Below, one piece after another: positions 7,415 through 63,670 of a stretch of DNA of 64,000 nt. The DNA is from Candidatus Nanoarchaeia archaeon. Lineage in GTDB: Archaea; Nanobdellota; Nanobdellia; Woesearchaeales; GW2011-AR9. Where the stretch lies: the NCBI GenBank assembly GCA_035290865.1, contig DATDTM010000012.1, positions 11,134 through 75,133 of the forward strand, written 5' to 3'. Positions within the stretch are counted from its first letter, which is position 1. Each line of letters begins with the position of its first letter. The notes under the pieces are model-generated. The model saw only the letters and a list, made by a program, of their open reading frames with translations, was not told the origin of the DNA and searched no databases. Both the position numbers and the translations under genes were made by a program.

Positions 7415-7512
7415 ATTTAGGCTAAATTCATCAGTTATTTTTATTCTTTGTTATTGAAAACAACGATTTTTAAAGAAATAAATATAAACCCTAAAGTAAT
7501 TAACTTTAAAAT

Positions 7513-7604
7513 CTGAATTTTCCACCAGTGTTGCACATGTGGCATAAGCTCCAGCGAGATTACATCACGTGGAAAATTCAGGGTCTGAGGAAACCGCGGT
7601 TTCC
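7513..7604. repeat. MITE-like hairpin repeat (family 4, inverted copy of 63185-63253) plus GGAAACCGCGGTTTCC hairpin
   Basis: CTGAATTTTCCAC...GTGGAAAATTCAG terminal inverted repeat. Near-identical reverse complement of 63185-63253. Confidence 0.7.
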
Positions 7605-9406: not shown

Positions 9407-11212
9407 ATGAAAAATTATCTCAAAAAGTATGAGAAGATTGATTTAAAATACAATCTGAAAACGCTTTGGGGTTTCGTCAAGAAATATCGCTGGTCTTTTT
9501 ATGGATTGATTTTCTTGATGCTATTAAACGAGATTTTTGCTTTTTTAGACAATTTTGCTTTTAAGTACTTAGTAGATAAGGGCACCTTGTTCAGCCAGGG
9601 GAATCTTTCTCCAGAAACTCTCTGGGAAATCTTATTGATCATTGTTTTCTTATTCATTCTGCTTAAGATCATCAGTGCTCTTTTCTGGTTCATCACCTTA
9701 AGGGTAGTCAACCTGATGGAAGCAAAAGTAATGAACGATATCGAAAAGAAATCGTTTTGGCATATTCTAACTTTATCCTACCGTTTCCACCTCAATAAGC
9801 GTACCGGATCTTTGATCTCCCAGTTTACCAGAGGGGTGAATAAGGTAGAAGCTTTTGGAGACGCCATCATCTTCAACTTTATCCCTGTATTCTTTCGTAT
9901 CTTGCTTTCAGTAGGAGTAATCTTCTATTTTGATATTGCTACATCTTTAGTAGTATTGATCACCTGTGTACTCTTCGCTATGGTGGGAATTTACTTTACC
10001 AACCTGCAAAAAGTACCTCAAAATATAGCTAATTACCATGAAGATAACCTAAAACAGAACCTTAGCGATGTTTTTCAAAATATCGAGACCGTGAAATATT
10101 TCGCTAAAGAGAAAGACACTTATCATTATTTTAGTACCCTCTCAGAAAAATTAAAAGTCGCCAGAAATAAGTTCTGGAATTATTTTTCCTGGCTCTCTGC
10201 AATAGACACTTTGGTTTTAGGGTTGGGCATCGCAGCTATCTTTTATTTCAGTTTTACCGGCTTGATGCAGGGAAGAATCAGTTTAGGCAGCATTACTTTA
10301 ATTTACGCTGCAGTTTGGAGATTAATCCCCATGCTCTTTAATTTAATGCATGGCTATCGCCAATTCATCCGTAGCAGCGTGGATGTAGATGCTTTATTTC
10401 AGATGTTCAAAGAAGAGAATGAAGTAATAGATTTACCTGAAGCAAAAAAGCTTCAGGTTGCTCAGGGAAAGATTGAATTCAAGAATGTTTCTTTCGCTTA
10501 TCCAGCCAGCGGAAGGGATAACCGAACCGTAATCAAAAATTTTAGTCATATTCTTAAGCCCAATACCAAAGTCGCTTTAGTTGGTCCCTCTGGTGGGGGA
10601 AAGACCACGGTCATCAAACTGCTCTACCGTCTCTTTGATCTTCCGGAAGGACAAATCTTAATTGATGAACAAGATATCCATCAAGTCGCCCAGGAATCAT
10701 TGCGCAATTCCATCAGTGTAGTTCCTCAAGAGCCGATTTTGTTTGATAATACTCTATGGTTTAATATTGCCTATGCTAACCCCCGTGCAGGCAAAAGAAA
10801 GGTTTGGCAGGCCATCAGGTTCGCTCAGCTGGATAAATTTATTGCCCAGCTACCTAAAAAAGAAAAGACTATTGTCGGAGAGAGGGGGGTAAAATTATCC
10901 GGAGGAGAAAAACAAAGAGTCAGTATTGCCCGAGCCATCCTTGCCGACAAAAAAATCCTGGTTTTAGACGAAGCTACCTCTGCTCTAGATTCAGAGACAG
11001 AAAAAGAGATTCAAGCTTGCCTAGAAAAGTTGATGAAAAATAGGACTACTATCATGATTGCCCATAGACTATCTACGATTATGAAAGCCGATGAGATTAT
11101 TGTCCTAGATCAAGGGCGGATTGTTGAGATAGGCACCCATGATCAGCTCGCTAATAAGCAGGGCGGGCTATACCAAAGATTATGGGGGTTGCAAAGAGGA
11201 GGAAGATTGTAA
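9407..11212 (+). CDS. ABC transporter, fused permease/ATPase (MsbA-like exporter)
   Basis: Six transmembrane segments followed by Walker A GPSGGGKTT, signature LSGGEKQRVSIARA and Walker B ILVLDEATS. Confidence 0.85.
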   Translation: MKNYLKKYEKIDLKYNLKTLWGFVKKYRWSFYGLIFLMLLNEIFAFLDNFAFKYLVDKGTLFSQGNLSPETLWEILLIIVFLFILLKIISALFWFITLRVVNLMEAKVMNDIEKKSFWHILTLSYRFHLNKRTGSLISQFTRGVNKVEAFGDAIIFNFIPVFFRILLSVGVIFYFDIATSLVVLITCVLFAMVGIYFTNLQKVPQNIANYHEDNLKQNLSDVFQNIETVKYFAKEKDTYHYFSTLSEKLKVARNKFWNYFSWLSAIDTLVLGLGIAAIFYFSFTGLMQGRISLGSITLIYAAVWRLIPMLFNLMHGYRQFIRSSVDVDALFQMFKEENEVIDLPEAKKLQVAQGKIEFKNVSFAYPASGRDNRTVIKNFSHILKPNTKVALVGPSGGGKTTVIKLLYRLFDLPEGQILIDEQDIHQVAQESLRNSISVVPQEPILFDNTLWFNIAYANPRAGKRKVWQAIRFAQLDKFIAQLPKKEKTIVGERGVKLSGGEKQRVSIARAILADKKILVLDEATSALDSETEKEIQACLEKLMKNRTTIMIAHRLSTIMKADEIIVLDQGRIVEIGTHDQLANKQGGLYQRLWGLQRGGRL

Positions 11213-11432
11213 CGAAAACTTGCCTGCTCCTGCCTAGGGTCACTAACGTTCTCAAGTTCTCTGACGAGAACTATCCGCGGGCTAAAGCCGGTGGCTTTAC
11301 GGCACTCGCTTACACGGGCAAGTCCCTAAAAAATTGGAAATTTTTGGGGCACAGAAAATCTTTGATTTTCTTGTGTTTCGGAACAGAAATTTAGCGCCCT
11401 AAAAGGTGGGGCTTTATACCCCGCTAAATTTC
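11209..11432. repeat. ~220-bp structured repeat (family 1), copy A
   Basis: About 95% identical to 39986-40188. Several perfect hairpins (GTTCTC..GAGAAC, GAAATTTAGCG..CGCTAAATTTC). Confidence 0.75.
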
Positions 11433-21134: not shown

Positions 21135-22091
21135 ATGAGCCAAAAGAAACTCAGACCGAAATTTCCAAGCCTAGAATCAGATATCATCCTGGCTCCCATG
21201 GCTAAGATTACTGACCCTGCCTTTCGTAGCTTATGTAAAGAATACGGTTGCGGTTTGACTGTAACTGAAATGATTTCTGCTAATGATTTAGCTAGGAAAG
21301 ATAAACTGGCAATGAAAGAATTAGAACAACTGAAATCTGAATCCAAACCCAGATGCGTTCAATTGTATGGCCGGAATATAGACAATTTCATTACCGCTAC
21401 AAAAATGGTGCAAGGTTATGCAGAAGTTCTTGACTTAAATTTTGGCTGCCCTTATTATAAAATCATTGCCCAAGGTTTGGGCTGTGCCTTGATGGAACTT
21501 CCCGGAAAGATTAGGCAGATTGTTCAAAATGTAGTCGCAAATTCAAAAATACCCGTAACCTGCAAGATTCGCTTGGGGATGGATGCTAAAAATATTACCG
21601 TTTTAGAAGTAGCTAAGAAAGGTGAAGAATCTGGTGCAGTTATGATTACAGTCCATGCCCGCACCCAGAAACAAGAATATTCCGGAAAAGCAGATTGGAG
21701 TTGGATCAAGAAGGTTAAAGACACAGTCCAAATTCCAGTCTGCGGTAATGGAGATGTAAGAACTGTCGAAGATTATGTCAGATTGAAAAAAGAAACCGGC
21801 TGCGATTATGTCATGATTGGTCGAGGAGCGATCGGCAATCCATTTATTTTCAAACAGATAAATGAGTTCAATAAAACGGGAAAATATAAGATTCCTACCT
21901 CTGAAGAAAGAATCAAAGCTTTAAGAGAATATCTGGTTCTGGCAGAGAAGTTCGAAATAGAATTTGAACAGGTCAAGAAACAGGCGATGTATTTCTTAGA
22001 ACGAACTCTGCCGGATAAGCTGTTTAAAGCAGAGTTGGAAAAAGTTAAGAATAAGAAAGAGATGGGAATTCTACTAAACTCTTTTCTCTAA
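21135..22091 (+). CDS. dus: tRNA-dihydrouridine synthase (Dus), paralog 1
   Basis: ILAPMA..TD, LNFGCP, TVHARTQ and VMIGRGAIGNP motifs. Confidence 0.85.
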   Translation: MSQKKLRPKFPSLESDIILAPMAKITDPAFRSLCKEYGCGLTVTEMISANDLARKDKLAMKELEQLKSESKPRCVQLYGRNIDNFITATKMVQGYAEVLDLNFGCPYYKIIAQGLGCALMELPGKIRQIVQNVVANSKIPVTCKIRLGMDAKNITVLEVAKKGEESGAVMITVHARTQKQEYSGKADWSWIKKVKDTVQIPVCGNGDVRTVEDYVRLKKETGCDYVMIGRGAIGNPFIFKQINEFNKTGKYKIPTSEERIKALREYLVLAEKFEIEFEQVKKQAMYFLERTLPDKLFKAELEKVKNKKEMGILLNSFL

Positions 22092-22796
22092 TGAATCTTT
22101 GTTGCTAACTGCATCTTCCGACGACTCTACCCCGAGGACGCGGCCGTAGTTGTAGAAGTAGTAGACGCCGCCAAGGCTATTGTTGACGTAGTTGCCGCCA
22201 AGAACCAGCCAGCGCCCCTTCGCAACATTGTCTAAATCATTAACAATTCTAAGATGTATTTTACTTCCGATTCTCTTGCCAAAAGCATCTAAATATGATT
22301 CAGCACGCTCTTTCCCACCCAAGAAGGGAATCATCATTGGGTGAGCTAATGCTGTACTAACTTCAATATCACCATATTGGGAATTCATCAATTCTTGGTG
22401 GTCTCTGACAAAAACTGTCTTTTCGTCTTCCAAACCAAGCAATTTTAGGAATTCATCCTGAGGCATGAGCCCTGCACCATTACTCAATCCATTCTGATAA
22501 ACTTTTTTGAGATTTTCTAAGTTTGAAAAGTAATTCGAGCCATGATCATAAACAACCACGGCTTTACCGGCTCTGTTTCTGCCGGTAACTATAATACTCG
22601 GTTGAGTGAAATCATTCTGCCACAGATAATCATTGCAATTAGGAGTAATCTTGGCATCAACCAGTTCTGGTATGAACCAAGGCTGAGCTTTTGCATCAAC
22701 ACATTCAGTATAAGCTTTAAGAATGCCGTCTATTTCAAGTCTTTCAAAGACTTGAACATCTTGATTTCTGACAATCGGGGTGGTTATGGTTTGCAT
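22074..22796 (-). CDS. hypothetical protein, MQTITT paralog A
   Basis: ~85% aa identity to 23600..24520; contains a GC-rich codon patch; no known domain. Confidence 0.55.
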   Translation of the reverse strand: MQTITTPIVRNQDVQVFERLEIDGILKAYTECVDAKAQPWFIPELVDAKITPNCNDYLWQNDFTQPSIIVTGRNRAGKAVVVYDHGSNYFSNLENLKKVYQNGLSNGAGLMPQDEFLKLLGLEDEKTVFVRDHQELMNSQYGDIEVSTALAHPMMIPFLGGKERAESYLDAFGKRIGSKIHLRIVNDLDNVAKGRWLVLGGNYVNNSLGGVYYFYNYGRVLGVESSEDAVSNKDSLEKRV

Positions 22797-22968: not shown

Positions 22969-23262
22969 ATGGTCAACCAAACTATTAACTCTCTCAAAAA
23001 AATAATTGTACCCATCCTTAAGAAGAATGATGTAGTTAAAGCAGGAATTTTTGGTTCTTACGCCAGAGGAGAACAGAAGAAAAGCAGTGATATAGACCTG
23101 TTGATAAAATATGGCCGGAAGAAAAAGAGTTTGTTAGACCTGGTTCATTTAAAATATGCTTTAGAAGATAAATTGAACCAAAAAGTGGATATTTTAACCT
23201 ATAAATCAATAAATAATCTGTTTAAGAAAGAGATTCTGGACTCAGAGGTTAAAATATTATGA
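22969..23262 (+). CDS. MNT-type nucleotidyltransferase antitoxin
   Basis: GIFGSYARGE...SDIDLLI minimal NTase motif; overlaps the downstream HepT gene by 4 nt. Confidence 0.75.
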   Translation: MVNQTINSLKKIIVPILKKNDVVKAGIFGSYARGEQKKSSDIDLLIKYGRKKKSLLDLVHLKYALEDKLNQKVDILTYKSINNLFKKEILDSEVKIL

Positions 23263-23591
23263 AAAGCGATTTAAAATACCTTCAGCACATTCTGGGATCG
23301 ATTGACCTTATCGATAATTTTGTTTTGGGGCTGGATAAGAACAAATTTTCCAAGAATATAGAAAAACAGTTTGCAGTTATACGGGGATTAGAGATAATTG
23401 GTGAAGCGGTAAAGAATTTGTCCGAAGAAACAAAAATAAATCATCCAGAAATAGTCTGGCGAGAGATTGCCGGAACACGAGACATTTTAATTCATTCTTA
23501 CTTTAGTGTGGATTTGGACTTAGTATGGGATATTATCCAGAGTGATTTGCCCAAATTAAAAACACAGATCAAAATAATCTTAAAAAAATAA
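23259..23591 (+). CDS. HepT-like toxin (DUF86/HEPN)
   Basis: R-x4-H-x-Y motif (RDILIHSY) near the C-terminus. Confidence 0.75.
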   Translation: MKSDLKYLQHILGSIDLIDNFVLGLDKNKFSKNIEKQFAVIRGLEIIGEAVKNLSEETKINHPEIVWREIAGTRDILIHSYFSVDLDLVWDIIQSDLPKLKTQIKIILKK

Positions 23592-23599
23592 GAAATAAA

Positions 23600-24520
23600 T
23601 TAATTCTTCTTAGTCAATAACTGGTAGGCTTCCGGCGAGATCTGATCCTGCCTGATAACAACTAGACCATTGCCAACATCGTTGCCTTTGCCCAGAAGAG
23701 ATTCTAAAGATGAAACGGGATTTTTCAGCGCGTCCTCCTTCGGAGGAACGATAACCGGGCTCGTCGAGTCACTTCGTTCGTGACTTTGCTGCGACAAAGC
23801 TTCGTTCGCCACCGACGACGACTCTACCCCGAGGACACGGCCGTCGTTGCTGAAGCTGTAGCTGCCGCCAAGGTCGCCGCCAAGGTTGTAGTAGATGTAG
23901 TCGCCAAGGACCAGCCAGCGCCCCCTGGGAACTTCGCTTAAATCATTAGTAATTCCTAAATACATTTTACTTCCGATTTTTTTACCGAAAACATCTAAAT
24001 ATTGTTCAGCACGATCTTTCCCACCCAAAAAAGGAATTATCATAGGATGGGCCAAAGCTTTGCTGACTTTAATATCGCCACGAGCAGAATTCATCAATTC
24101 TTGGTGGTCTCTGACAAAAATCGTCTTTTCATCATTCAAACCAAGCAATTTCAAAAATTCTTCCTGAAGCATGAGCCCTGCACCATTACTCAATCCATTC
24201 TGGTAAACTTTTTTGAGATTTTCTAAGTCTGAAAAGTAATTCGAGCCATGGCTATAAACGACCACGGCTTTTCCGGCTCTGTTTCTGCCGGTAACTATGA
24301 TACTCGGTTGAGTGAAACCATTCTGCCACAAATAATCATTGCAATTAGGAGTAATCTTGGCATCAACCAGTTCTGGTATGAACCATGGCTGGCATTTTGC
24401 ATCAACACATTCAGTATAAGCTTTAAGAATACCGTCTGTTTCAAGTCTTTCAAAGACCTGAAGGTCTTGGTTTCTGACGCTGACAATCGGGGTGGTTATG
24501 GTTTGCATTTTTGGGTTCAC
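23600..24520 (-). CDS. hypothetical protein, MQTITT paralog B (C-terminal extension of uncertain reality)
   Basis: ~90% DNA identity to paralog A over the shared part. An extra ~60-aa tail lies over a GC-rich hairpin-rich stretch. Confidence 0.5.
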   Translation of the reverse strand: MNPKMQTITTPIVSVRNQDLQVFERLETDGILKAYTECVDAKCQPWFIPELVDAKITPNCNDYLWQNGFTQPSIIVTGRNRAGKAVVVYSHGSNYFSDLENLKKVYQNGLSNGAGLMLQEEFLKLLGLNDEKTIFVRDHQELMNSARGDIKVSKALAHPMIIPFLGGKDRAEQYLDVFGKKIGSKMYLGITNDLSEVPRGRWLVLGDYIYYNLGGDLGGSYSFSNDGRVLGVESSSVANEALSQQSHERSDSTSPVIVPPKEDALKNPVSSLESLLGKGNDVGNGLVVIRQDQISPEAYQLLTKKN

Positions 24521-24716: not shown

Positions 24717-25331
24717 ATGATTACCAAAGAACAAATCAAAATTTTAGGTGTCTTCAACAAAGACCTCTTCACTAGTTTTACTTTCCGCCAGATTAAGGAG
24801 CAAAGCCAGCAGAAATCAAATAATGTCGTCCAGATAGCCCTAAAAGAATTCCAGAAACAAGATTTAGTAACTATAAAGAAAATTGGGAATGTTAAAACAT
24901 ACAACTTAAATTTAGACAACAATCTCACTTTATCTTATCTTAATCTGATCAATGAATTAGAAATCCGCCGTAAAATATTTCCCAAAGAGATCTTAGCCGA
25001 GATTAAAAAAAAGATCGAGAAGAAAAGCGAGTTCTTTATTTTAATTGTTTTTGGAAGCTATGCTAAAAATAAAGCTACAGAAAAATCTGATTTAGATCTA
25101 GCAGTTATTATCGAATCCGAACCAACAAAAAAAGAAATAGCCCCTTTATTAGAAACAATAAAAAGAAGAGAACTCAAACCCATAGATTATCATCTCTTCA
25201 CCAGAAGTGAGTTTTTAGAAATGCTTAAAGCAGATTATGAAAATATGGGCAAACAAATTTATAAAAACCATCTTATTTATTATGGTTATATCGAATTTTG
25301 CAATCTAATCCGGGGTATAAAAAATGGATGA
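24717..25331 (+). CDS. nucleotidyltransferase with N-terminal wHTH
   Basis: FGSYAKNKATEKSDLDLAVI NTase motif; overlaps the downstream HEPN ORF by 8 nt. Confidence 0.65.
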   Translation: MITKEQIKILGVFNKDLFTSFTFRQIKEQSQQKSNNVVQIALKEFQKQDLVTIKKIGNVKTYNLNLDNNLTLSYLNLINELEIRRKIFPKEILAEIKKKIEKKSEFFILIVFGSYAKNKATEKSDLDLAVIIESEPTKKEIAPLLETIKRRELKPIDYHLFTRSEFLEMLKADYENMGKQIYKNHLIYYGYIEFCNLIRGIKNG

Positions 25332-25809
25332 TAAATCCGAATTATATCTGCAGAGAGCAGAAAATGAACTGGTTGTTGCCCAGATGCTATTTCAAATCTC
25401 AAGTAATACTTTTCTCCAAAAAGAGCAATTTAAACTTGAAAAAGAATTTACTTTCTACAGCACCGTCATTGGTCATTCCTATTATTGTATCTTTTATTCT
25501 GCAAAAGCGATCTTAATCCAAAATGGGATTAAAACAGAAGCTCCTGAAGAACACAGAAAAACTTTAGAAGCCTTTGAGGACTTCTTAGTCAAATCTGGAA
25601 GACTAGATGTAGAATTATTGAAGATCTACAAAAAGATGGTAATTAGAGCAGAAGAACTATTAGAAATATTTTCTAGAGAAAAAGGAAAAAGAGGAGAATT
25701 CACTTACCGAAAACTACCACAGGCAAATTTAGACCCGGCCCAAGAATCTTTAGATAATGGGTTATTATTTTTTAAGAACATTAATGCAGTTTTAAGAAAG
25801 ATTAACTGA
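25324..25809 (+). CDS. HEPN-domain protein (partner of the upstream NTase)
   Basis: All-helical protein of HEPN-like length and gene order. Confidence 0.55.
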   Translation: MDDKSELYLQRAENELVVAQMLFQISSNTFLQKEQFKLEKEFTFYSTVIGHSYYCIFYSAKAILIQNGIKTEAPEEHRKTLEAFEDFLVKSGRLDVELLKIYKKMVIRAEELLEIFSREKGKRGEFTYRKLPQANLDPAQESLDNGLLFFKNINAVLRKIN

Positions 25810-25816
25810 TTACAAA

Positions 25817-26761
25817 ATGCCTCAACTTCCAAAACTTTCATCCGATACCATCCTCGCCCCCATGGCCGGCGTAACCGATGTAGCTTTTCGTGTGCTCTGC
25901 AGAAGGTCTGGCGCAGGATTAACTTGTACTGAAATGATTTCCGCTAATGCCCTCGCTAGAAGTAACCAAGCCACTTTAAAACTGATTAATCTGGCAGAGG
26001 AAGAGAAACCGCGAGTAATCCAGCTCTTCGGCCAGAATACTGATTGCCTGATTAAATCCGCACAATTCATAGAACAGAATAATCTTTGCGAAATCATCGA
26101 CCTAAACTTCGGCTGTCCGGCAGAAAAAATCATCCGTCAAGGTGCAGGCAGTGCTTTGTTGGAACGACCAAACAAGATTAAAGAGATTATAGAGGCAGTT
26201 ACTAAAGCGGTAAAGATTCCCGTAACTTGTAAATTAAGATTAGGGATCAGAACCAGTAACATTAATATCTTAAAAGTAGCTAAGATCTGTGAAGAAGCAG
26301 GCGCAAGTATGCTCACCATCCATGCCCGGACTCAGAACCAAGGTTATACCGGAACCGCGGATTGGTCTTGGATCAAGAAAGTTAAAGAAGCTGCTAAGAT
26401 TCCTGTTTGCGGTAATGGTGATGTCAGAACAGTTGAAGATTATGTGCGTATGAAAAAAGAAACCGGCTGTGATTATGTCATGATTGGGAGAGGCGCGATA
26501 GGCAATCCTTATTTGTTCAAACAAATCAGCGATTATAATAAAACCGGAAAATATTCTGAGAGAACTAAATCCCAGCAGATGGAAGATTTCTTTGCCTATC
26601 TTAAATTAGCCAAAAGATATAAAGTAGATTTCCAATATATCAGATTTCAGGCTATGGCCTTTACTAAAGGGCTGCCTGACTCTGCCCAGCTAAGATTGAA
26701 GTTGAGCAAGGTAAAGAATATAAAAGAGATTGAAAGAGTGATTGTACAGAAAGATTTATAA
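25817..26761 (+). CDS. dus: tRNA-dihydrouridine synthase (Dus), paralog 2
   Basis: Same Dus motifs; ~55% aa identity to paralog 1. Confidence 0.85.
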   Translation: MPQLPKLSSDTILAPMAGVTDVAFRVLCRRSGAGLTCTEMISANALARSNQATLKLINLAEEEKPRVIQLFGQNTDCLIKSAQFIEQNNLCEIIDLNFGCPAEKIIRQGAGSALLERPNKIKEIIEAVTKAVKIPVTCKLRLGIRTSNINILKVAKICEEAGASMLTIHARTQNQGYTGTADWSWIKKVKEAAKIPVCGNGDVRTVEDYVRMKKETGCDYVMIGRGAIGNPYLFKQISDYNKTGKYSERTKSQQMEDFFAYLKLAKRYKVDFQYIRFQAMAFTKGLPDSAQLRLKLSKVKNIKEIERVIVQKDL

Positions 26762-32500: not shown

Positions 32501-33073
32501 ATGAAAATCAAAGAGATCGAAGTAGAAATCAGAGGCAGACTGGATTCTAAAAGCTACGCTGAACTAAAACTGTTTTTAGAAAAAAATGGTACTCACCACG
32601 CCAGCCAAGAACGGGAAATGTATTTATTACAGGATTATCCAGGTTATACCCCGGATTTTGTCGACCGTCCGATGGACATTAGGTTGCGCAATACCAACGG
32701 CCAGTGTGAAATTATGATGAAATGCGCTGTCCAAGGCGCACGCGAAGAAGTATCTCTAGAACTGAAAGATTCAAATTTGGAAAAAGCTAAGAAAGTTCTG
32801 AAAGGTTTAGGCTGCGCCAAGGCCATTTGGATGCACCGCCTAAAAGTGATTTATAAATACAAAGATATAGAATGGTCACTGGTGATTGCGCCCAACGATA
32901 TCCGCTATTACGAGGCAGAGTTGGTCGTGGCTAATGATCAGGAAGTAGCTCAAGCAAACCAAAGATTGGTCCAAGTGGCAACTGAACTCAAACTAGAAGT
33001 GTTAGACGATACCGGCACAAGAGCTTTAATTGAGAAACTGGATAAAGAAGCTAATAAACCGGTCCAACTTTAA
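32501..33073 (+). CDS. CYTH-domain (triphosphate tunnel) protein
   Basis: EIEVEIRGRL N-terminal beta-strand motif. Start trimmed from 32399 because the upstream part overlaps the tRNA. Confidence 0.65.
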   Translation: MKIKEIEVEIRGRLDSKSYAELKLFLEKNGTHHASQEREMYLLQDYPGYTPDFVDRPMDIRLRNTNGQCEIMMKCAVQGAREEVSLELKDSNLEKAKKVLKGLGCAKAIWMHRLKVIYKYKDIEWSLVIAPNDIRYYEAELVVANDQEVAQANQRLVQVATELKLEVLDDTGTRALIEKLDKEANKPVQL

Positions 33074-33075
33074 AT

Positions 33076-33229
33076 GTCAAAATGCTCGCGACCACCACCG
33101 GTCAGAGACCGGTGGCATGCTCGCCCTTCGGGCTCGGGTCGCTCACATCATAAGAGCTGAGCATTTTGACTTAGGAATGTAACTAGTGTTTAAACCACTG
33201 GTGAAAACACCAGTGGAATGACTTTATTC
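33076..33229. repeat. MITE-like element (family 2; TIR GTCAAAATGCTC) plus CCACTGGTG hairpin module
   Basis: 12-bp perfect terminal inverted repeats at 33076/33170. Core CACCACCGGTC-AGA-GACCGGTGG is shared with the 40191 and 63120 copies. Confidence 0.7.
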
Positions 33230-33498: not shown

Positions 33499-33554
33499 AT
33501 CTTTCTTTTTTTTCTCTTTTTCTAGATTATTTTTATAAAGAAGTAACCATTTCC

Positions 33555-33755
33555 CTTTCTAAGCCTCATGTTGTTTGCCAGCGGGGCATACTCAGAAACA
33601 AGTTTCTGGTCGCCGCGCTGTCTCGTGCTGCTCGCCAGCGTGGCACAATCCGGTACTGCGGCGGATAGAATCAAGCCGAATCTCGAATCCGGATGGAAAA
33701 CCGCTCCCGCAAGGGACTCTCGGTTCAAATGAGAGATAAGAAAAACTTATTTTTC
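33555..33755 (+). ncRNA. candidate structured ncRNA, identity unknown
   Basis: ~55% GC island in a 33% GC genome. TTTTTATAAA TATA-like box ~25 bp upstream; oligo-T (TTATTTTT) at the 3' end. Several hairpins (CAGAAAC/GTTTCTG, CTCTCGGTTCAAATGAGAG). Confidence 0.35.
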
Positions 33756-37380: not shown

Positions 37381-38634
37381 CTAATCTAACCCATAGAAAC
37401 AAAACTTCCAGAGTGGCATCCAAAATATATTTCCTTTCTGCCCTTCCACATCTCTGGTAATCAAAAAAGCTTTTTTTATCTTTAAGCTTCCCCCATACTT
37501 TTCTAAGAAAAATTCCACCCAACGGAGATCATTTTTTCTAATCTCTGAAGAATATTTTACCTCAACCGGCAATGATTCTTTCAGGAAATCTATCTCTTTT
37601 TCTTTATCTCTCCAGTAATACTTTGCTTCCAGCTCAAATCCAACTAAACTCTCCGCATACTTGTCCTCTGAAACTTCGTAGGGGAGAGTAAGGCAAGGAT
37701 GGTAAGGATAAATTTTAGATAACTTGCGGGAAGCAGCCCGTAGTGAAGGGCGGAAATTTAATACCCTCTTTATCAGGAAAGAGAATTCTAAGTAAAATAA
37801 AGCTTTATATAATGTGGCTTTCGCTCTGCCCAACTCTTTAGCTAAATCATCTATGGAAATGATTTGACCGGGCTGGCCCAGAAATAAATTAACTAATTTT
37901 TCCAGCAATAAGATATCTACATCTTTGAATTCTTTGGGAATGTCTTTCAGGAGAATAGGCTCGATGACTGCTTCCCTTATGTAATTTTTAATAAACAAAA
38001 TGTCCGCTTCTTTTACTAAAGCAGGGAAAGGGCGGTAGAGGAAAGCACGAAATTCTTTTTTTAGCAATTCTTCATACAAAGCCGGCTTGTTTTCATCGAA
38101 TTTAGTTCCTTTTAGCTGTAGAAATTCTTTAAAATGAAGCGGCTTTAATTCGTAGTACATTGCTCTCCCAGCCAGGCTTTTCTTTGCCTCAGCAAGAATA
38201 GGCAGAGAAGCTGATCCCGAGACTACGATTTTAATATTATGATAATGGTCATAAAGTAATTTGGTGCTGGCTACCCACTCCTTCGCTTTTTGGATCTCGT
38301 CTAAGAATAAATACACTTTCTCTTTCCGGAAATCTATCCCTGTTAAAGATGAGTATTCCTCCAGAATTTCTTCTATTCTTCTGCTTTGAAAGTTGGGCTC
38401 ATCAAAGGTACAGTATAAGATTTGAAGCGGGGAAACATTACTTTTAATTAGATCTTCTATTAGCTGAAAGATTAGAGTAGACTTTCCCACTCGGCGCAAA
38501 CCAACAACTACCGTAATCATTCTGCGCGAGAGATCCTTTTGCAGGTTAAAGAACAGTTCCCGGCGTACTGCGGGAACCATTTCTGGCTTTACTTTACTTT
38601 CTGTCCACCAAGGGTTTAACTCATTTAGCTTCAT
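37381..38634 (-). CDS. archaeal ATPase (AAA_14 + DUF4143 family)
   Basis: NPWW N-terminus, Walker A GLRRVGKST, Walker B LFLDEIQ; C-terminal DUF4143-like region. Confidence 0.75.
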   Translation of the reverse strand: MKLNELNPWWTESKVKPEMVPAVRRELFFNLQKDLSRRMITVVVGLRRVGKSTLIFQLIEDLIKSNVSPLQILYCTFDEPNFQSRRIEEILEEYSSLTGIDFRKEKVYLFLDEIQKAKEWVASTKLLYDHYHNIKIVVSGSASLPILAEAKKSLAGRAMYYELKPLHFKEFLQLKGTKFDENKPALYEELLKKEFRAFLYRPFPALVKEADILFIKNYIREAVIEPILLKDIPKEFKDVDILLLEKLVNLFLGQPGQIISIDDLAKELGRAKATLYKALFYLEFSFLIKRVLNFRPSLRAASRKLSKIYPYHPCLTLPYEVSEDKYAESLVGFELEAKYYWRDKEKEIDFLKESLPVEVKYSSEIRKNDLRWVEFFLEKYGGSLKIKKAFLITRDVEGQKGNIFWMPLWKFCFYGLD

Positions 38635-39930: not shown

Positions 39931-39985
39931 TACTACAAGTTTGTAGTATATTAAAGATTTTTTTTCTCCAAACGTTAGAGTTATA

Positions 39986-40188
39986 GTAACGAAAACTTGC
40001 CTGCTCATGCCTAGGGTCACTAACGTTCTCAAGTTCTCTGACGAGAACTATCCACGGGCTAAAGCCCGTGGCTTTACGACACTCGCTTACACTGGCAAGT
40101 CCCTGAAAAATTGAAAATTTTTGGGGCACAGAAAATCTTTGATTTTCTTGTGTTTCGGAACAGAAATTTAGCGCCCTAAAGGGTGGAG
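39986..40188. repeat. ~200-bp structured repeat (family 1), copy B
   Basis: About 95% identical to 11209-11412. The terminal hairpin is truncated by the adjacent MITE. Confidence 0.75.
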
Positions 40189-40190
40189 CT

Positions 40191-40410
40191 GTCAAAATGC
40201 TCGCGACCACCACCAGTCACATTCTGTCGTTGCACTCCGAAGTTGCTTAACAGCAACGACTGGTGGCATGCCCGCCCTTCGGGCTCGGGTCGCTCGCAGA
40301 ATGAGAGCTGAACATTTTGACTGAGAAGTGCGCCACCAATCAAATCAAGTTGGAACTTTGTTCCTCGTGAGTTGCTTAACAGCAACGATTGGTGGAAACG
40401 ACTTTATTAT
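40191..40410. repeat. composite MITE (family 2 with internal insertion + family 3 hairpin module); left arm of the inverted pair flanking lysS
   Basis: GTCAAAATGCTC TIRs at 40191/40331, then a CCACCAATC..GATTGGTGG module. Reverse complement is found at 42041-42198. Confidence 0.75.
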
Positions 40411-40440
40411 AACCTAAACTCCGTTATAAGTAACACCAGC

Positions 40441-41940
40441 TTATTTTCCTCCCCTTCCTTCTTCCTTCTCTTCCTCTCTCGGCTTCATAGTTGGAAACAA
40501 AATTATGTCCCGGATAGAATCTGCCCCAGTCATCAGCATCACCATCCGATCCACCCCAATCCCAATCCCCGTATTAGGAGGCAGGCCGATCTCTAAAGCA
40601 CGGATGAAATCCTCATCCATGGGATGCGCTTCTTCATCTCCGCCCCGGCCTTTCTTAGCCTGTTCTTCTAACAATTCCCGCTGTAAAATAGGATCATTTA
40701 ATTCCGAATAACAATTACCCACTTCCCAGCCATTGATGAACGGTTCGATCCTCTCAATTAATTCTGGATCATTTCTATGCTGTTTAGCTAAAGGACAAGA
40801 TTCTTTAGGATGGTCAATAATATGGGTCGGTTGGATTAATTTATCTTCACACAACTCTTCAAATAATAAGACCATCATCTCCCCCCGGGAAGTTTTTCCC
40901 TCACACTCGATCTTATGCTGGCGGATTAAGGCTACCAATTCTTTATCAGACAACTTATCTAAATCAATCTTCGCTAACTGTTTCAAGGCCTCTTTCATGG
41001 TCAATCTTTTCCAGGGCGCTGTCAGATCGATCTTATTCCCGCCATATTCGATGATCGTAGTTCCTAACACTTTCTTGGCTACATAATCCCAGAGCTGTTC
41101 GGTTAATTCCATAGCTTTATTATAATCCGCATAAGCCCATTGGATTTCCATCATGGCAAATTCAGGGTTATGGGTTCTATCTGCATCTTCGTTCCTGAAA
41201 CAAGAGCTTAAATCATAAATCCTTTCGAAACCGCCTACAATCAGCCGTTTCAAATCTAATTCATAAGCAATTCTAAGATACATGGGCATCTTCCAGGCAT
41301 TGATTTGAGTAATAAACGGCCGGGCATTCGCTCCTCCATACTGAGTTTGTAAAATAGGCGTTCTAACTTCAATAAAATCTTTCTGATCTAAGAACTCTCT
41401 GATCGCCCGATAGATCTTCGCCCGTTTGATGAAAACTTCTTTAACTTCCGGATTGACAATTAAATCTACATATCTTTGCCTGTACCTTAACTCTTCATCT
41501 TTAAGACCATGAAATTTTTCCGGTAAAGGTAATAAAGATTTGCATAAGATCTCAGAACTGGAAACTTCAATGGTAACTTCCCCTTTTTGAGTTTTAAAAA
41601 TAATTCCAGCAATACCCAAAAAATCACCCAGATCAGTTTTTTTAGTTATAATATCGTATTTTTCTTTACCTAATTTATCCTCCTGAAGATAAAGCTGAAC
41701 TTTTCCGCTTTGATCTTGGAGATGAAAAAAGCTGGCCTTGCCCATGACCCGTTTAAGCATGATCCTTCCTGCCACCGAAACTGTATCTTTGGTATGGTCT
41801 CCTGAATTCAGATGAGAATATTTCTGATTAATTTCCAGAGCATGATCAGTTTGAGAATAAGAATAGGGATAAGGATTGATTCCTAAGGCTTTTAATTCTT
41901 CCAGTTTCTTTAATTTGCTTTCATCTAAATTTTCAGCCAT
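40441..41940 (-). CDS. lysS: lysyl-tRNA synthetase, class II
   Basis: N-terminal OB anticodon-binding domain plus class II motifs 1-3 (FRNE, GIGIGVDRMVML). Confidence 0.9.
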   Translation of the reverse strand: MAENLDESKLKKLEELKALGINPYPYSYSQTDHALEINQKYSHLNSGDHTKDTVSVAGRIMLKRVMGKASFFHLQDQSGKVQLYLQEDKLGKEKYDIITKKTDLGDFLGIAGIIFKTQKGEVTIEVSSSEILCKSLLPLPEKFHGLKDEELRYRQRYVDLIVNPEVKEVFIKRAKIYRAIREFLDQKDFIEVRTPILQTQYGGANARPFITQINAWKMPMYLRIAYELDLKRLIVGGFERIYDLSSCFRNEDADRTHNPEFAMMEIQWAYADYNKAMELTEQLWDYVAKKVLGTTIIEYGGNKIDLTAPWKRLTMKEALKQLAKIDLDKLSDKELVALIRQHKIECEGKTSRGEMMVLLFEELCEDKLIQPTHIIDHPKESCPLAKQHRNDPELIERIEPFINGWEVGNCYSELNDPILQRELLEEQAKKGRGGDEEAHPMDEDFIRALEIGLPPNTGIGIGVDRMVMLMTGADSIRDIILFPTMKPREEEKEEGRGGK

Positions 41941-42040
41941 AAACCGCTGTTAATAGCTAGAGTTATATAAAGATTTCTTTGGAATAGTACTATATTAGGT
42001 GCGATTCAGATTAAGTGAAAACAACCCCCACCTAGATTAA

Positions 42041-42198
42041 AATAAAGTCGTTTCCACCAATCGTTGCTGTTAAGCAACTCACGAGGAACAAAGTTCCGAC
42101 TTGATTTGATTGGTGGTGCACTCCTCAGTCAAAATGCTCAGTTCTCATTCTGCGAGCGACCCGAACCCGCAGGCGAGTATGGTCGCGAGCATTTTGAC
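42041..42198. repeat. composite MITE, right arm (inverted orientation) flanking lysS
   Basis: Reverse complement of 40332-40410 followed by the family-2 element with a shorter core. Confidence 0.75.
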
Positions 42199-45565: not shown

Positions 45566-45850
45566 GGGTCAGCTAGGCTGGCGCGCTAGCCCTGCGTTGT
45601 TACCGTGAATGAGCTTTACACGGAGCCGAAGCCTGATAAAAGGGCCAGTTTGGTTTTGTTGGTCCTGATCCGCTTTGCAGACAGCTTGTCCTTTGGGATG
45701 GACTTGCTGGGAATCTGGTCAGATCCGGAAGGAAGCAGCCATAACCTGTAGGTTTCATGTTCAGAGGGTCGCAAGCTCGAGAGGCTTTCAGGAACAAACC
45801 AATGGAGCTATATTGGTTCGATTGTCGGGCCTGCCCCTAAAGTTTCTTTT
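45566..45850 (+). ncRNA. signal recognition particle RNA (7S RNA)
   Basis: GGUCAGAUCCGGAAGGAAGCAGCCAUAACC matches the helix-8 core of 4.5S/7S RNA (GGUCAGGUCCGGAAGGAAGCAGCC). GC-rich island with a TATA-like box ~30 bp upstream. Confidence 0.75.
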
Positions 45851-62874: not shown

Positions 62875-63108
62875 AATAATTAAAATGAATGAGTACAGAT
62901 ATTCAATTAACCTAAAAAAGGCTTTTCTAATCCCTGAACAATAAAATGTATTTTCTCTTACCACCAAAAATTCGGAGACATTTATGTTTTTTGGATCGGT
63001 CATTAAAAACAGGTGGACTGGGTTTTTATCTTTTCCAAGAGATGGTTGAATATAATCAAAATGATTTAATTTAAACTAAATATTTTCATAAAAATTTATC
63101 TGTCAATC

Positions 63109-63253
63109 GGAAACCGCCCACCACCGGTCACAGACCGGTGGCATGCTCGCTCCCTTCGGTCGCTCGGGGCGGTTTCCTCAGACCCTGAATTTTCCACGAA
63201 ATGCAATCTCGCTGAAGCTTATGCCACCAGTGTAACACTGGTGGAAAATTCAG
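63109..63253. repeat. MITE-like composite (GGAAACCGCC TIR element with family-2 core + family 4)
   Basis: GGAAACCGCC...GGCGGTTTCC inverted repeats enclosing CACCACCGGTCACAGACCGGTGGCATGCTCGC. Followed by CTGAATTTTCCAC...GTGGAAAATTCAG. Confidence 0.7.
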
Positions 63254-63670
63254 ATTTTACTGGCCATCTTATTATCTGGCCTTTCAACTTCTAATACAAT
63301 TTTTTGCTTGTTCTTTGAGAGATATTCTTTCAGTAAGTCTGTTCCATTCCTTTTTCCCTAAATTCTTCTTTTATTGCCAAATATTCCATAACCCATAAAT
63401 CTCCAAAATCCCAATTAGTAACTATTGCAACTATTTTTTATCTTTAATAACAATGGAGAAAAAAGAGTATCGCTTGTTTTTAATCAGCTTTTTCTGTAAA
63501 TCCATTGTTCTTCTTTCGTCTGAAGGGAAAGAAGATTCATATATCCCCCACACTCCTCTAAATTCTGCTGAATTCTCGTCTCTTATTTTGATGAATCCCA
63601 TCTTGCAAGTGATAAGATTTAATCTTTTATTTATTGGGCTATTTATTGAGTAATATGAAGATGAGCCGAA

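Follow-up and report, generated by a model that had tools for sequence, protein, structure and literature searches.

In a diversity-generating retroelement (DGR), a template repeat (TR) is transcribed and a reverse transcriptase (RT) makes cDNA from it, misincorporating opposite the template adenines. This cDNA overwrites the variable region (VR) of a target gene, and two features guide the replacement: the IMH, an invariant GC-rich stretch with which the VR ends on its 3′ side, and a hairpin located downstream. AvpA-like proteins, which are targets of this kind, may provide small symbiotic archaea with a binding surface that can be altered quickly.

AvpA (PDB 5IOO) is the variable protein of DGR2 from DUSEL4 Nanoarchaeota (Paul et al. 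2015, PMC4372165; Handa et al. 2016, PMC5006420). Proteins of its type share the conserved motifs GXXVVVYAH, HPXXXPFXG and RFXGV, and AvpA itself carries a post-VR extension of 46 aa with a hairpin inside (Handa 2016, PMC5006420). In nanoarchaea, the published IMH is TGGGGT in the VR and the corresponding IMH* is TGGAAT in the TR, hairpins with a GRA loop have been described inside target genes, and fragmentary DGRs have been discussed in terms of multi-target action or of mobile RT/TR units (Paul 2015, PMC4372165). DGRs acting on remote targets escape surveys (Roux 2021).

The DNA analysed here (the window, the whole stretch of 64,000 nucleotides to which all positions refer) contains two paralogous genes, A and B, each with an internal GC-rich patch. 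We consider it highly probable (about 0.93) that these patches are the VRs of two AvpA-type variable proteins diversified by a nanoarchaeal DGR, and we infer that they were written by a TR and an RT located outside the window. The DGR system is already known in nanoarchaea; the result neither extends the mechanism nor resolves a pending question.

Results

Composition of the GC-rich patches

The two genes and their patches are located as follows.

22074-22796, minus strand: paralogue A, predicted AvpA-like DGR variable protein, short form (240 aa, HLD72154.1, VJA23_01065)
23600-24508, minus strand: paralogue B, predicted AvpA-like DGR variable protein, long form (302 aa from MQTITT, HLD72157.1, VJA23_01080)
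22119-22218, minus strand: GC-rich patch, proposed VR of paralogue A (GC3 0.853, adenine 0.18; coordinates verified)
23816-23924, minus strand: GC-rich patch, proposed VR of paralogue B (delimited by the shared flank pattern; GC3 0.865, adenine 0.16; coordinates verified)

The NCBI protein identities were taken from cluster membership, and the B reading frame has an alternative GTG start at 24520. A and B share 81% amino-acid identity and are separated by 0.8 kb, with their starts 1.7 kb apart and an MNT/HepT toxin-antitoxin pair between them.

Sliding GC and GC3 analyses confirmed that the patch noticed in both genes by the preliminary description is real, correctly placed and non-random, and allowed its limits to be sharpened. 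In 120-nt windows, GC peaked at 0.59 in A and 0.65 in B, the latter being the maximum of the 64-kb window (mean 0.37, sd 0.06); the background GC is therefore 37% and not the ~33% first reported. Past the B patch, raised GC continued to ~23700. GC3 reached 0.853 in A (34 codons) and 0.865 in B (37 codons), compared with 0.32 and 0.36 upstream in the same genes and 0.36 in 17 other genes, and none of 7,271 background windows of 34 codons came as high as either patch (maximum 0.735). Adenine fell to 0.16-0.18, versus 0.32 upstream in the same genes.

Gly, Tyr, Asn and Ser abound in the encoded peptide, and the patch might accordingly be viewed as a by-product of amino-acid content, that is, of a Gly/Tyr/Arg-rich motif needing no special mechanism. 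Amino-acid content, however, leaves the synonymous choice unexplained: in the two tracts described below Tyr was encoded by TAC in 12 of 12 cases and Asn by AAC in 5 of 6, with Phe as TTC and Val as GTC. GC3 values of 0.85-0.87, above all 7,271 background windows, argue in the same direction, and homologues, instead of using ordinary AT-rich or AT-ending codons for the same residues, carry the same GC-rich ones. We regard this explanation as scarcely credible.

Homology of A and B to AvpA

When the family profile was compared with PDB chains, AvpA (5ioo_A) was matched with an E-value of 6.5e-74 and all other chains had E >=0.4. Individually, phmmer aligned A (residues 37-230, E 5.1e-43) and B (residues 40-236, E 1.3e-40) with AvpA, and both alignments extended through the VR. 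The AvpA motifs are present as GKAVVVY(D/S)H, HPM(M/I)IPFLG and RVLGV (GKAVVVYDH and HPMMIPFLG in A), the departures from the consensus, D/S for A and V for F, being conservative in both cases. Neither Pfam nor NCBIfam returned a family match for A or B; evidently, neither library includes a model of the AvpA family.

An AlphaFold2 model built from only 12 sequences was of low confidence (mean pLDDT 55, below 50 across the VR). Used in Foldseek, it gave 5ioo_A as its sole significant match (E 7.7e-13, TM 0.47/0.53, ~42% identity). Given the poor model, the lectin fold rests on sequence homology to 5IOO, from which we infer that A and B probably adopt a C-type lectin fold. The two proteins are thus, as judged from their alignments, AvpA homologues and predicted C-type-lectin-fold variable proteins of nanoarchaeal DGRs.

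Architecture of the VRs

Within each patch, a hypervariable codon tract is followed on the coding strand by an invariant end.

22146-22199, minus strand: hypervariable codon tract of A, encodes GGNYVNNSLGGVYYFYNY (from codon lists)
22119-22145, minus strand: invariant 3′ end of the A VR, IMH-like, GGCCGCGTCCTCGGGGTAGAGTCGTCG (contains CGGGGT, encodes GRVLGVESS)
23843-23905, minus strand: hypervariable codon tract of B, encodes GDYIYYNLGGDLGGSYSFSND (from codon lists)
23816-23842, minus strand: invariant 3′ end of the B VR, IMH-like, GGCCGTGTCCTCGGGGTAGAGTCGTCG (pattern match, coordinates verified)

The A tract comprises 18 codons, of which 15 have C at the third position and the other 3 have T (AAT once, CTT twice). 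The B tract comprises 21 codons, 19 ending in C and two (CTT) in T. Differences among A, B and homologues in this tract were found only at codon positions 1-2 of NNC codons; the variable residues are those encoded by NNC codons, flanked by scaffold codons free of adenine. Such a pattern is what a DGR would be expected to leave. The template would hold the variable residues as AAC codons, which become NNC in the VR, and the scaffold residues would be kept adenine-free (GGC, CTT, TTC, CGY, GTC, CTC, GGG, TGG, CTG) because adenines in the template would be mutated as well. The AAC-to-NNC logic and the adenine-free scaffold would together yield an adenine-poor patch of high GC3, with its codon usage dictated by the template and not by the genome.

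The GRVLGVESS sequence at the end of the A VR aligns with the β5 strand of AvpA. The 3′-end pattern occurs in the window at these two places alone and is absent from shuffled sequences. Both window VRs read ...CTCGGGGTAGAG, while the TR of L001, a contig from a different organism (see below), reads ...CTCGGAATAGAT, with CGGAAT at the place occupied by CGGGGT in the window VRs. In other relatives, the VRs of contigs L020 and L023 contain TGGGGT, and the L023 TR contains TGGAAT. The CGGGGT/CGGAAT pair formed by the window VRs and the L001 TR matches the published nanoarchaeal IMH/IMH* pair.

The two VRs are not identical in layout. The B VR is 9 nt longer than that of A and has an internal repeat of CTTGGCGGC, and three further differences are non-adenine (GTT/GTC, AAT/AAC and CGC/CGT). 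This disagreement in length and at non-adenine positions means that A and B cannot both have been recently rewritten from one TR. VR length across the subfamily ranged from ~85 to 109 nt between the common flanks.

Complete cassettes in relatives

In contig L001, a homologue of A and B (P0005) lies ahead of a second copy of its own VR (the TR), after which comes an RT reading frame (RVT_1, E 1.2e-16) with LGNLTSQ and YVDD. Between the L001 VR and TR, 12 of the 26 adenines of the template were mismatched, as was 1 of the 60 other bases (p 7e-7). Contig L020 is a second cassette, in which an AvpA-like gene is likewise followed by a TR and an RT, and here the mismatches affected 16 of 25 adenines and none of 54 other bases. 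When the window A patch was set against the heterologous L001 TR, that of another organism, mismatches affected 12 of the 26 adenines and 4 of the 60 other bases (p 5e-5). As the mechanism would predict, the L001 TR has 52% GC and 30% A, and the VRs have 61-74% GC and 6-17% A.

The RT family of L001 and L020 had 7,976 matches at E<1e-10, the few named ones being from Nanoarchaeota or Woesearchaeota. A close relative of the L001 RT, P0017 (74% identical to it), had as its best PDB match the 328-aa chain 8ub7_A (E 6e-45), followed by a retron-type RT (E 4e-27). The deposited title of 8ub7_A is only 'Reverse transcriptase'; we take this chain to be the Bordetella phage DGR reverse transcriptase.

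Among the readings offered by the preliminary description, a captured segment or recombination hotspot came closest: what it needs in addition is that the VR is repeatedly overwritten, at a defined homing site, by cDNA derived from a template. A DGR acting on an AvpA-type protein was not among its explanations. Taken literally, a hotspot or GC-biased gene conversion between the paralogues would have raised local GC, and indeed the copies lie 1.7 kb apart, and are ~82% identical across the aligned gene and flanks, and mixed head/tail alleles occur (P0151 and P0153). Conversion should nevertheless increase identity, and it was in the patch that identity between the paralogues was minimal (75.7% over 140 nt). 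The patch is also present in a single-copy orthologue (contig L002) and in the L016 and L020 homologues (35-44% identical), and the differences obey the template-adenine pattern. Gene conversion is thus a very improbable source of the patches.

The C-terminal tail of B and its hairpins

After the common ...GVESS sequence, A continues for 14 residues and B for 71.

23600-23815, minus strand: C-terminal extension of B, 71 aa, ending in ...VSSLESLLGKGNDVGNGLVVIRQDQISPEAYQLLTKKN (conserved in some homologues)
23733-23747, minus strand: hairpin TCCTCC-GAA-GGAGGA, 6-bp GC-rich stem with a GRA triloop (from folding; coordinates verified)
23767-23785, minus strand: second hairpin AGTCAC-GAACGAA-GTGACT (from folding; coordinates verified)

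Read on the plus strand, the two hairpins are CCTCCTTCGGAGG (23733-23747) and GTCACTTCGTTCGTGAC (23767-23785). They had been quoted correctly at the outset, as had the peptides, and the view that the hairpins and the B tail belong with the patch was borne out; the extra tail of B is real too. At the protein level, the B-type tail is kept in P0002, P0011, P0153 and, partly, P0007, and other homologues have a different tail or none. Its counterpart in AvpA is the disordered stretch that extends that protein past the VR.

The first hairpin is conserved as a structure. At the same place, L001 carries TCCTCC/GGAGGA and L011 a GGA loop, and the equivalents in L016, L020 and L023 are GTCCCC-GTA-GGGGAC, GATGCC-GAA-GGCATC and GTCGCC-GAA-GGCGAC, so that stem pairing is preserved in these five relatives by compensatory changes. 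DNA homology between L016 and the window begins at this hairpin (L016:816 aligned to 23743). We read the hairpin at 23733-23747 as the DGR hairpin/cruciform target element. The second hairpin sits in an insert of 17 codons (51 nt), VANEALSQQSHERSDST, that is specific to the B allele and absent from P0002 and P0153. Paralogue A, likewise folded, lacks such a hairpin.

The local GC-rich hairpins of B, together with stop-free antisense reading frames over the patches (23780-23941 and 22192-22344, plus strand), could be taken as signs of a structured RNA, embedded in the gene on either strand as had been suggested, or of an antisense gene, either of which would impose the GC-rich composition. The antisense frames are expected anyway, since the reverse complement of NNC is GNN, which is never a stop. 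Rfam gave no match to the patches at the gathering score or at E<=1, and they folded no better than shuffled sequence (z-scores of -0.69 for B and +0.54 for A). Positions 1-2 of the codons in the central tract vary freely, and no partner positions change to compensate; the only hairpin that is conserved belongs to the known cis elements of DGRs. An embedded RNA or antisense gene is therefore most improbable. This reading, like paralogue gene conversion and the amino-acid explanation, is rejected on the tests described.

Searches for the template and the reverse transcriptase

Strict-flank patterns and low-stringency blastn, with the window VRs and the L001 TR as queries for a third copy, found only the two VRs in the 64-kb window. 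No RT was detected in the window by tblastn; one weak match (37738-37992, E 0.02) was rejected because it falls in an AAA_14 ATPase. Neither a TR nor an RT was present in sister contigs L012-L015, which cover 10 kb past each window end. The window VRs must therefore be remote targets or relics.

A scan of the genome_contigs collection found only L001. The TR-specific scan of metagenome_contigs gave zero matches and missed even the TR of L001 itself, this collection being incomplete for these samples; a broader VR/TR pattern found only L011, a VR, and the scan of viral_contigs returned nothing. Overall, apart from the TR of L001, a different organism, the public scans returned VRs only. An RT candidate, P0073, has a representative from the same sequencing run as the B variant P0001, and its contig (L023) comes from the same sample as L007. 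P0073 was rejected as the cognate RT: the DGR on L023 is another one, whose target is not an AvpA and whose TR does not match.

Natural variation and current activity

Sister contigs L002 and L005, which carry the single-copy orthologue, are 99.85% identical across 18.5 kb, and 26 of their 27 differing columns lie at 10606-10654, inside the VR. Relative to the L001 template layout they show five-codon and one-codon deletions. At the protein level, P0003, P0154 and P0155 differ chiefly in the VR: P0003 and P0154 are identical outside it, and P0155 has a few additional scattered changes. An RT or TR was not found within 8-10 kb of the L002 locus, which also lacks the hairpin. The rewriting of a VR at this RT- and TR-less locus indicates that action from a distance occurs in this group.

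The VRs of A and B themselves look stable: the exact A protein was found on 8 contigs and the exact B protein on 9, the sole B variant (P0001) having one changed VR residue, D to G, inside the B tract. The evidence, which is limited, tends towards little or no rewriting of the window VRs at present, especially that of A. It is possible, at odds a little short of even, that they are relics, formerly written by a DGR whose TR and RT were lost or moved away, and now frozen and subject to ordinary mutation only. Such a history bears on current activity and leaves the DGR origin unaffected. It would fit the failure to find a TR or RT in the window or in sister contigs up to 10 kb past its ends, the near-invariance of both proteins across contigs, the missing hairpin of A, and three C/T transitions in A at positions where the L001 TR is non-adenine and other VRs are constant; fragmentary DGRs have, besides, been noted in nanoarchaea (Paul 2015, PMC4372165). 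Against it, the single-copy orthologue, with neither nearby RT/TR nor hairpin, shows complete VR rewriting between near-identical contigs. The TR/RT search, moreover, spanned the window and 10 kb on each side, all but ~43 kb of a contig of 127 kb in one genome, and consensus assemblies mask variation at the population level.

Rather unlikely, in our judgement, is that A and B are live remote targets of one TR/RT unit located >10 kb away or on another replicon, with retrohoming also making whole-codon indels. If they were, length variation would join adenine mutagenesis as a product of the system, and the hairpin would be dispensable for short-tail targets.

Discussion

A compositional oddity in two hypothetical genes thus gains a precise and known mechanism, and A and B can be annotated as AvpA-like DGR variable proteins. 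The DGR signature (NNC codons, an adenine-free scaffold, the CGGGGT end and the GRA-loop hairpin) was readable without an RT or a template. Surveys anchored on the RT overlook, by design, targets that have no local RT or template.

In having VR genes without a local TR or RT, the window resembles remote or fragmentary DGR targets, and departs from the AvpA system, in which these elements are adjacent. It also departs from that system in its two paralogues flanking an MNT/HepT toxin-antitoxin pair, in the 14-aa tail of paralogue A, from which the hairpin is absent, in an IMH reading CGGGGT instead of TGGGGT, and in the variable length of the subfamily VRs (~85 to 109 nt between common flanks). 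The likenesses to AvpA lie in the VRs themselves, which are internal and not at the extreme C-terminus, are short, with ~12-14 AAY-derived variable codons, and have an IMH encoding the R(F/V)xGV β5 strand; as in AvpA, the post-VR extension of B has a GRA-triloop hairpin in coding DNA.

Compared with the prototype, the Bordetella phage BPP-1 DGR (Mtd, TR, bRT and Avd), AvpA belongs to a different lectin-fold subclass (Handa 2016, PMC5006420), the hairpin has a 3-nt GRA loop within the ORF instead of a GRNA tetraloop beyond the stop codon (Paul 2015, PMC4372165), and no Avd gene was identified here. The RTs of the relatives nevertheless appear to belong to the same clade as that of BPP-1 (8ub7_A, taken to be the Bordetella phage enzyme, being the best match of P0017). 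Also in common with BPP-1 are the adenine-specific TR/VR differences, as seen in the L001 and L020 cassettes, and AAC-to-NNC codons, a VR with a GC-rich IMH at its 3′ end, a GC-rich hairpin further downstream and the predicted C-type-lectin scaffold.

Composition and layout of the GC-rich patches

The preliminary description had claimed a GC-rich segment in both paralogous genes A and B, whose proteins are 81% identical, and such a segment, with sharp edges, lies near the 3' end of each. The peptides, hairpin sequences and longer B tail that it reported were all correct, but its genome GC of about 33% has to be replaced by 37% for the window. In 120-nt windows, GC rose to 0.59 in A and to 0.65 in B, the latter being the top value of the window (mean 0.37, sd 0.06). 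GC3 was 0.853 in the A patch and 0.865 in the B patch, compared to 0.36 in a set of 17 other genes and 0.32-0.36 in the portions of A and B upstream of the patch, and none of the 7,271 background 34-codon windows exceeded 0.735; the enrichment is a synonymous effect. Adenine dropped from 0.32 to 0.16-0.18. Genes and patches are laid out as follows:

22074-22796, minus strand: paralogue A, 240 aa
23600-24508, minus strand: paralogue B, 302 aa from MQTITT
5' block of both patches: 19 nt, adenine-free, GGGGCGCTGGCTGGTYCTT
Middle tract: 18 codons in A, 21 in B, nearly all C-ending (AAC, TAC, GTC, GGC, AGC, GAC, ATC, TTC)
3' block of both patches: 27 nt, invariant, GGCCGYGTCCTCGGGGTAGAGTCGTCG

Exactly two occurrences of each flanking block were found in the window and none in shuffled sequences. 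The middle tract is the least similar part of A and B (75.7% over 140 nt), its differences being found at the first and second codon positions, the pattern expected if a template AAC were copied with random bases for adenine. Gene conversion between the paralogues was rejected, the patch being the part in which they are least alike and being present also in single-copy and distant homologues. Amino-acid composition as the cause was discarded too, as it leaves the synonymous choices unexplained. An embedded structured RNA, proposed in the preliminary description, found no backing, with no Rfam match in the patches even at E<=1 and folding no better than that of shuffles.

A and B are AvpA-like proteins

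Pfam and NCBIfam gave no match to A or B, and a word-indexed protein search returned 11 relatives only, all unannotated, the sole named one being Candidatus Nanoarchaeia. The profile of these relatives matched one solved structure, 5IOO (E 6.5e-74), which is AvpA, the variable protein of a diversity-generating retroelement (DGR) from DUSEL4 Nanoarchaeota, with a C-type lectin fold (PMC5006420). Single sequences matched it as well (A, E 5.1e-43; B, E 1.3e-40) in alignments spanning the variable tract, and the three AvpA family motifs (PMC5006420) were found in A/B as GKAVVVY(D/S)H, HPM(M/I)IPFLG and RVLGV. The AlphaFold2 model was poor (pLDDT 55) and its sole significant Foldseek match was 5ioo_A (E 7.7e-13). 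An exhaustive profile search yielded 498 clusters at 50% identity (E<=1e-3), indicating a sizeable family. One member from the representative library (P0162, 925 aa) carries two tandem AvpA-like domains followed by an apparent ClpX-like AAA+ ATPase region, as judged by eye; it could be a true fusion or a gene-calling artefact.

Complete retroelement cassettes in relatives

Contig L001 (MAG archaeon DeMMO3_35) was located by scanning GTDB genomes for a DNA pattern; on it, a homologue (P0005) has another copy of its patch downstream and, after that, a reverse transcriptase (RT) ORF (RVT_1 E 1.2e-16; motifs LGNLTSQ and YVDD). The downstream copy is the template repeat (TR), having AAC where the P0005 gene has NNC. 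The variable region (VR) of P0005 differed from it at 12 of 26 adenines and at 1 of 60 other bases (p 7e-7). Compared with this template from another genome, A had mismatches at 12 of the 26 adenines and at 4 of the 60 other bases (p 5e-5), these four being C/T changes, as expected between genomes. The second complete cassette (L020) comprises an AvpA-like gene 44% identical to A, a TR and an RT, with VR and TR differing at 16/25 adenines and 0/54 other bases. The RT family had 7,976 matches at E<1e-10, the few named ones being from Nanoarchaeota or Woesearchaeota. The best solved relative of the RT P0017 was 8ub7_A (E 6e-45; 328 aa, deposited under the bare name 'Reverse transcriptase'), which we take to be the Bordetella phage DGR enzyme, and the next match was a retron-type RT (E 4e-27). 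At their 3' ends, VRs carry an IMH of (C/T)GGGGT and TRs carry GGAAT, which fits the published nanoarchaeal rule (Paul et al. 2015, PMC4372165).

Two details of L001 deserve mention. Its TR (L001:1281-1270) reads CGC TGA CTG, versus CGC TGG CTG (the invariant Trp of GRWLVL) in every VR; if this position is copied, only A-to-G yields a functional protein. Selection at this position is strong, or else the homed tract begins downstream of it. The RT (L001:111-1143, minus strand) is broken into ORFs 418-1143 and 111-398, which do not share a frame, reflecting either an assembly-error frameshift/stop or a decaying RT.

The L001 template has 52% GC and 30% A, while VRs have 61-74% GC and 6-17% A. 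Random bases in place of template adenines raise GC, scaffold codons have to avoid adenine, and the IMH and hairpin are likewise GC-rich; the template thus sets the codon usage of the patches. Antisense ORFs over the patches are a by-product, as NNC reads GNN on the opposite strand, which is never a stop.

Targeted variation and VR length

One 18.5-kb locus was present in two groundwater assemblies (L002 and L005), syntenic with the window (aIF2-gamma, Dus, target, NTase, Dus, guanylate kinase) and with a single target gene. The two versions are 99.85% identical; their alignment has 27 differing columns, 26 of them within the VR, at 10606-10654. Some of the changes are deletions of whole codons when set against the layout of the L001 template; L002:10585-10682 and L005:10585-10670 differ by whole-codon indels and are identical elsewhere. 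Rewriting is possible, as this locus shows, even for a short-tail target that has no RT within 8-10 kb. Outside the VR, proteins P0003 and P0154 have the same sequence and P0155 shows a few further scattered changes; the VRs of all three are unrelated. Between identical flanks, subfamily VRs measured 72, 84, 87 and 96 nt up to GTCCTCGG, in steps of whole codons. To our knowledge, length change is no part of the textbook DGR mechanism.

Hairpins and the tail of B

Whether the B tail is conserved as protein had been left as a question, and it is, in P0002, P0011 and P0153 and partly in P0007. Its counterpart in AvpA is the extension of 46 residues after the VR, and the DNA encoding this extension reportedly holds the DGR hairpin/cruciform (PMC5006420). 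Hairpins were located in B and at the equivalent place in relatives:

23733-23747: B, TCCTCC-GAA-GGAGGA
23767-23785: second B hairpin, within a 17-codon insert particular to the window's B allele
L001: TCCTCC-GAA-GGAGGA
L011: stem as L001 (TCCTCC/GGAGGA), GGA loop
L016: GTCCCC-GTA-GGGGAC
L020: GATGCC-GAA-GGCATC
L023: GTCGCC-GAA-GGCGAC

Stem sequences at this site differ among relatives with complementarity kept, and most loops are GRA, matching the published description (Paul et al. 2015, PMC4372165). By folding, A and its short-tail orthologues have no hairpin of the 23733-23747 type. In L016, the lectin body of P0011 is ~35% identical to A/B, and its C-terminal tail and downstream HepT/MNT are nearly identical; DNA homology (83%) between L016:816-1512 and window 23743-23046 starts at the hairpin. 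From these sequences, the P0011 gene seems to have had its body exchanged, with the VR/hairpin boundary as the junction. In alleles P0151 and P0153, B's VR is joined to other tails.

Genomic surroundings and other features

Toxin-antitoxin (TA) pairs adjoin both paralogues (MNT + HepT, 22969-23591; NTase + HEPN, 24717-25809). Next to the target gene, HepT/MNT is also conserved in four further loci (L007, L011, L016, L009), sitting where complete cassettes have TR and RT. Two tRNA dihydrouridine synthase (Dus) paralogues (21135-22091 and 25817-26761; 76% identity over 300 nt) bracket the target/TA block, the stop of the first overlapping the 3' end of A by 18 nt. The same bracket encloses a single target gene in L002, so the second AvpA copy and TA pair look like an insertion or duplication.

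Elsewhere, a GC-rich intergenic repeat family (7507-7597, 33066-33180, 40181-40416, 42033-42173, 63092-63260; also 11206-11413 and 39983-40190) has terminal inverted repeats GTCAAAATGCTC...GAGCATTTTGAC and internal hairpins CCACCGGTCaCAGACCGGTGG and GCCCTTCGGGC, two inverted-orientation copies flanking ORF 40441-41940. These repeats have no AAC tracts and are thus unrelated to the DGR; they had no Rfam match and may represent a MITE-like element or a structured RNA not yet described. An intergenic GC island at 33537-33747 (0.62) had no ORF and no Rfam match at E<=1. The sole Rfam match in the window was archaeal SRP RNA (45566-45837, plus strand), and ARAGORN found no tRNA genes in the 64 kb.

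Origin, activity and comparison with known systems

A DGR origin of the patches is secure; present activity is not. No TR or RT was found within the 64-kb window or on sister contigs reaching 10 kb past each of its ends, and no public scan returned a cognate TR. The exact A protein occurs on 8 contigs and the exact B on 9, with one B variant changed at a single VR residue. The VRs of A and B disagree at three non-adenine positions and in length, so both cannot be recent rewrites of one template. Either a TR/RT elsewhere in the genome acts on the patches as remote targets, or they are frozen relics; both cases have been discussed for nanoarchaea (Paul et al. 2015, PMC4372165; Roux 2021).

The feature singled out in the preliminary description is real and mechanistically meaningful, and it belongs to a known system that was described in 2015-2016, that of nanoarchaeal DGRs with AvpA-like variable proteins. 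Its local particulars are the presence of two paralogues, 1.7 kb from start to start, the absence of a nearby RT/TR, the lack of the hairpin in one copy, and VRs whose length varies by codons across the family; they are worth a note and do not amount to a new mechanism.
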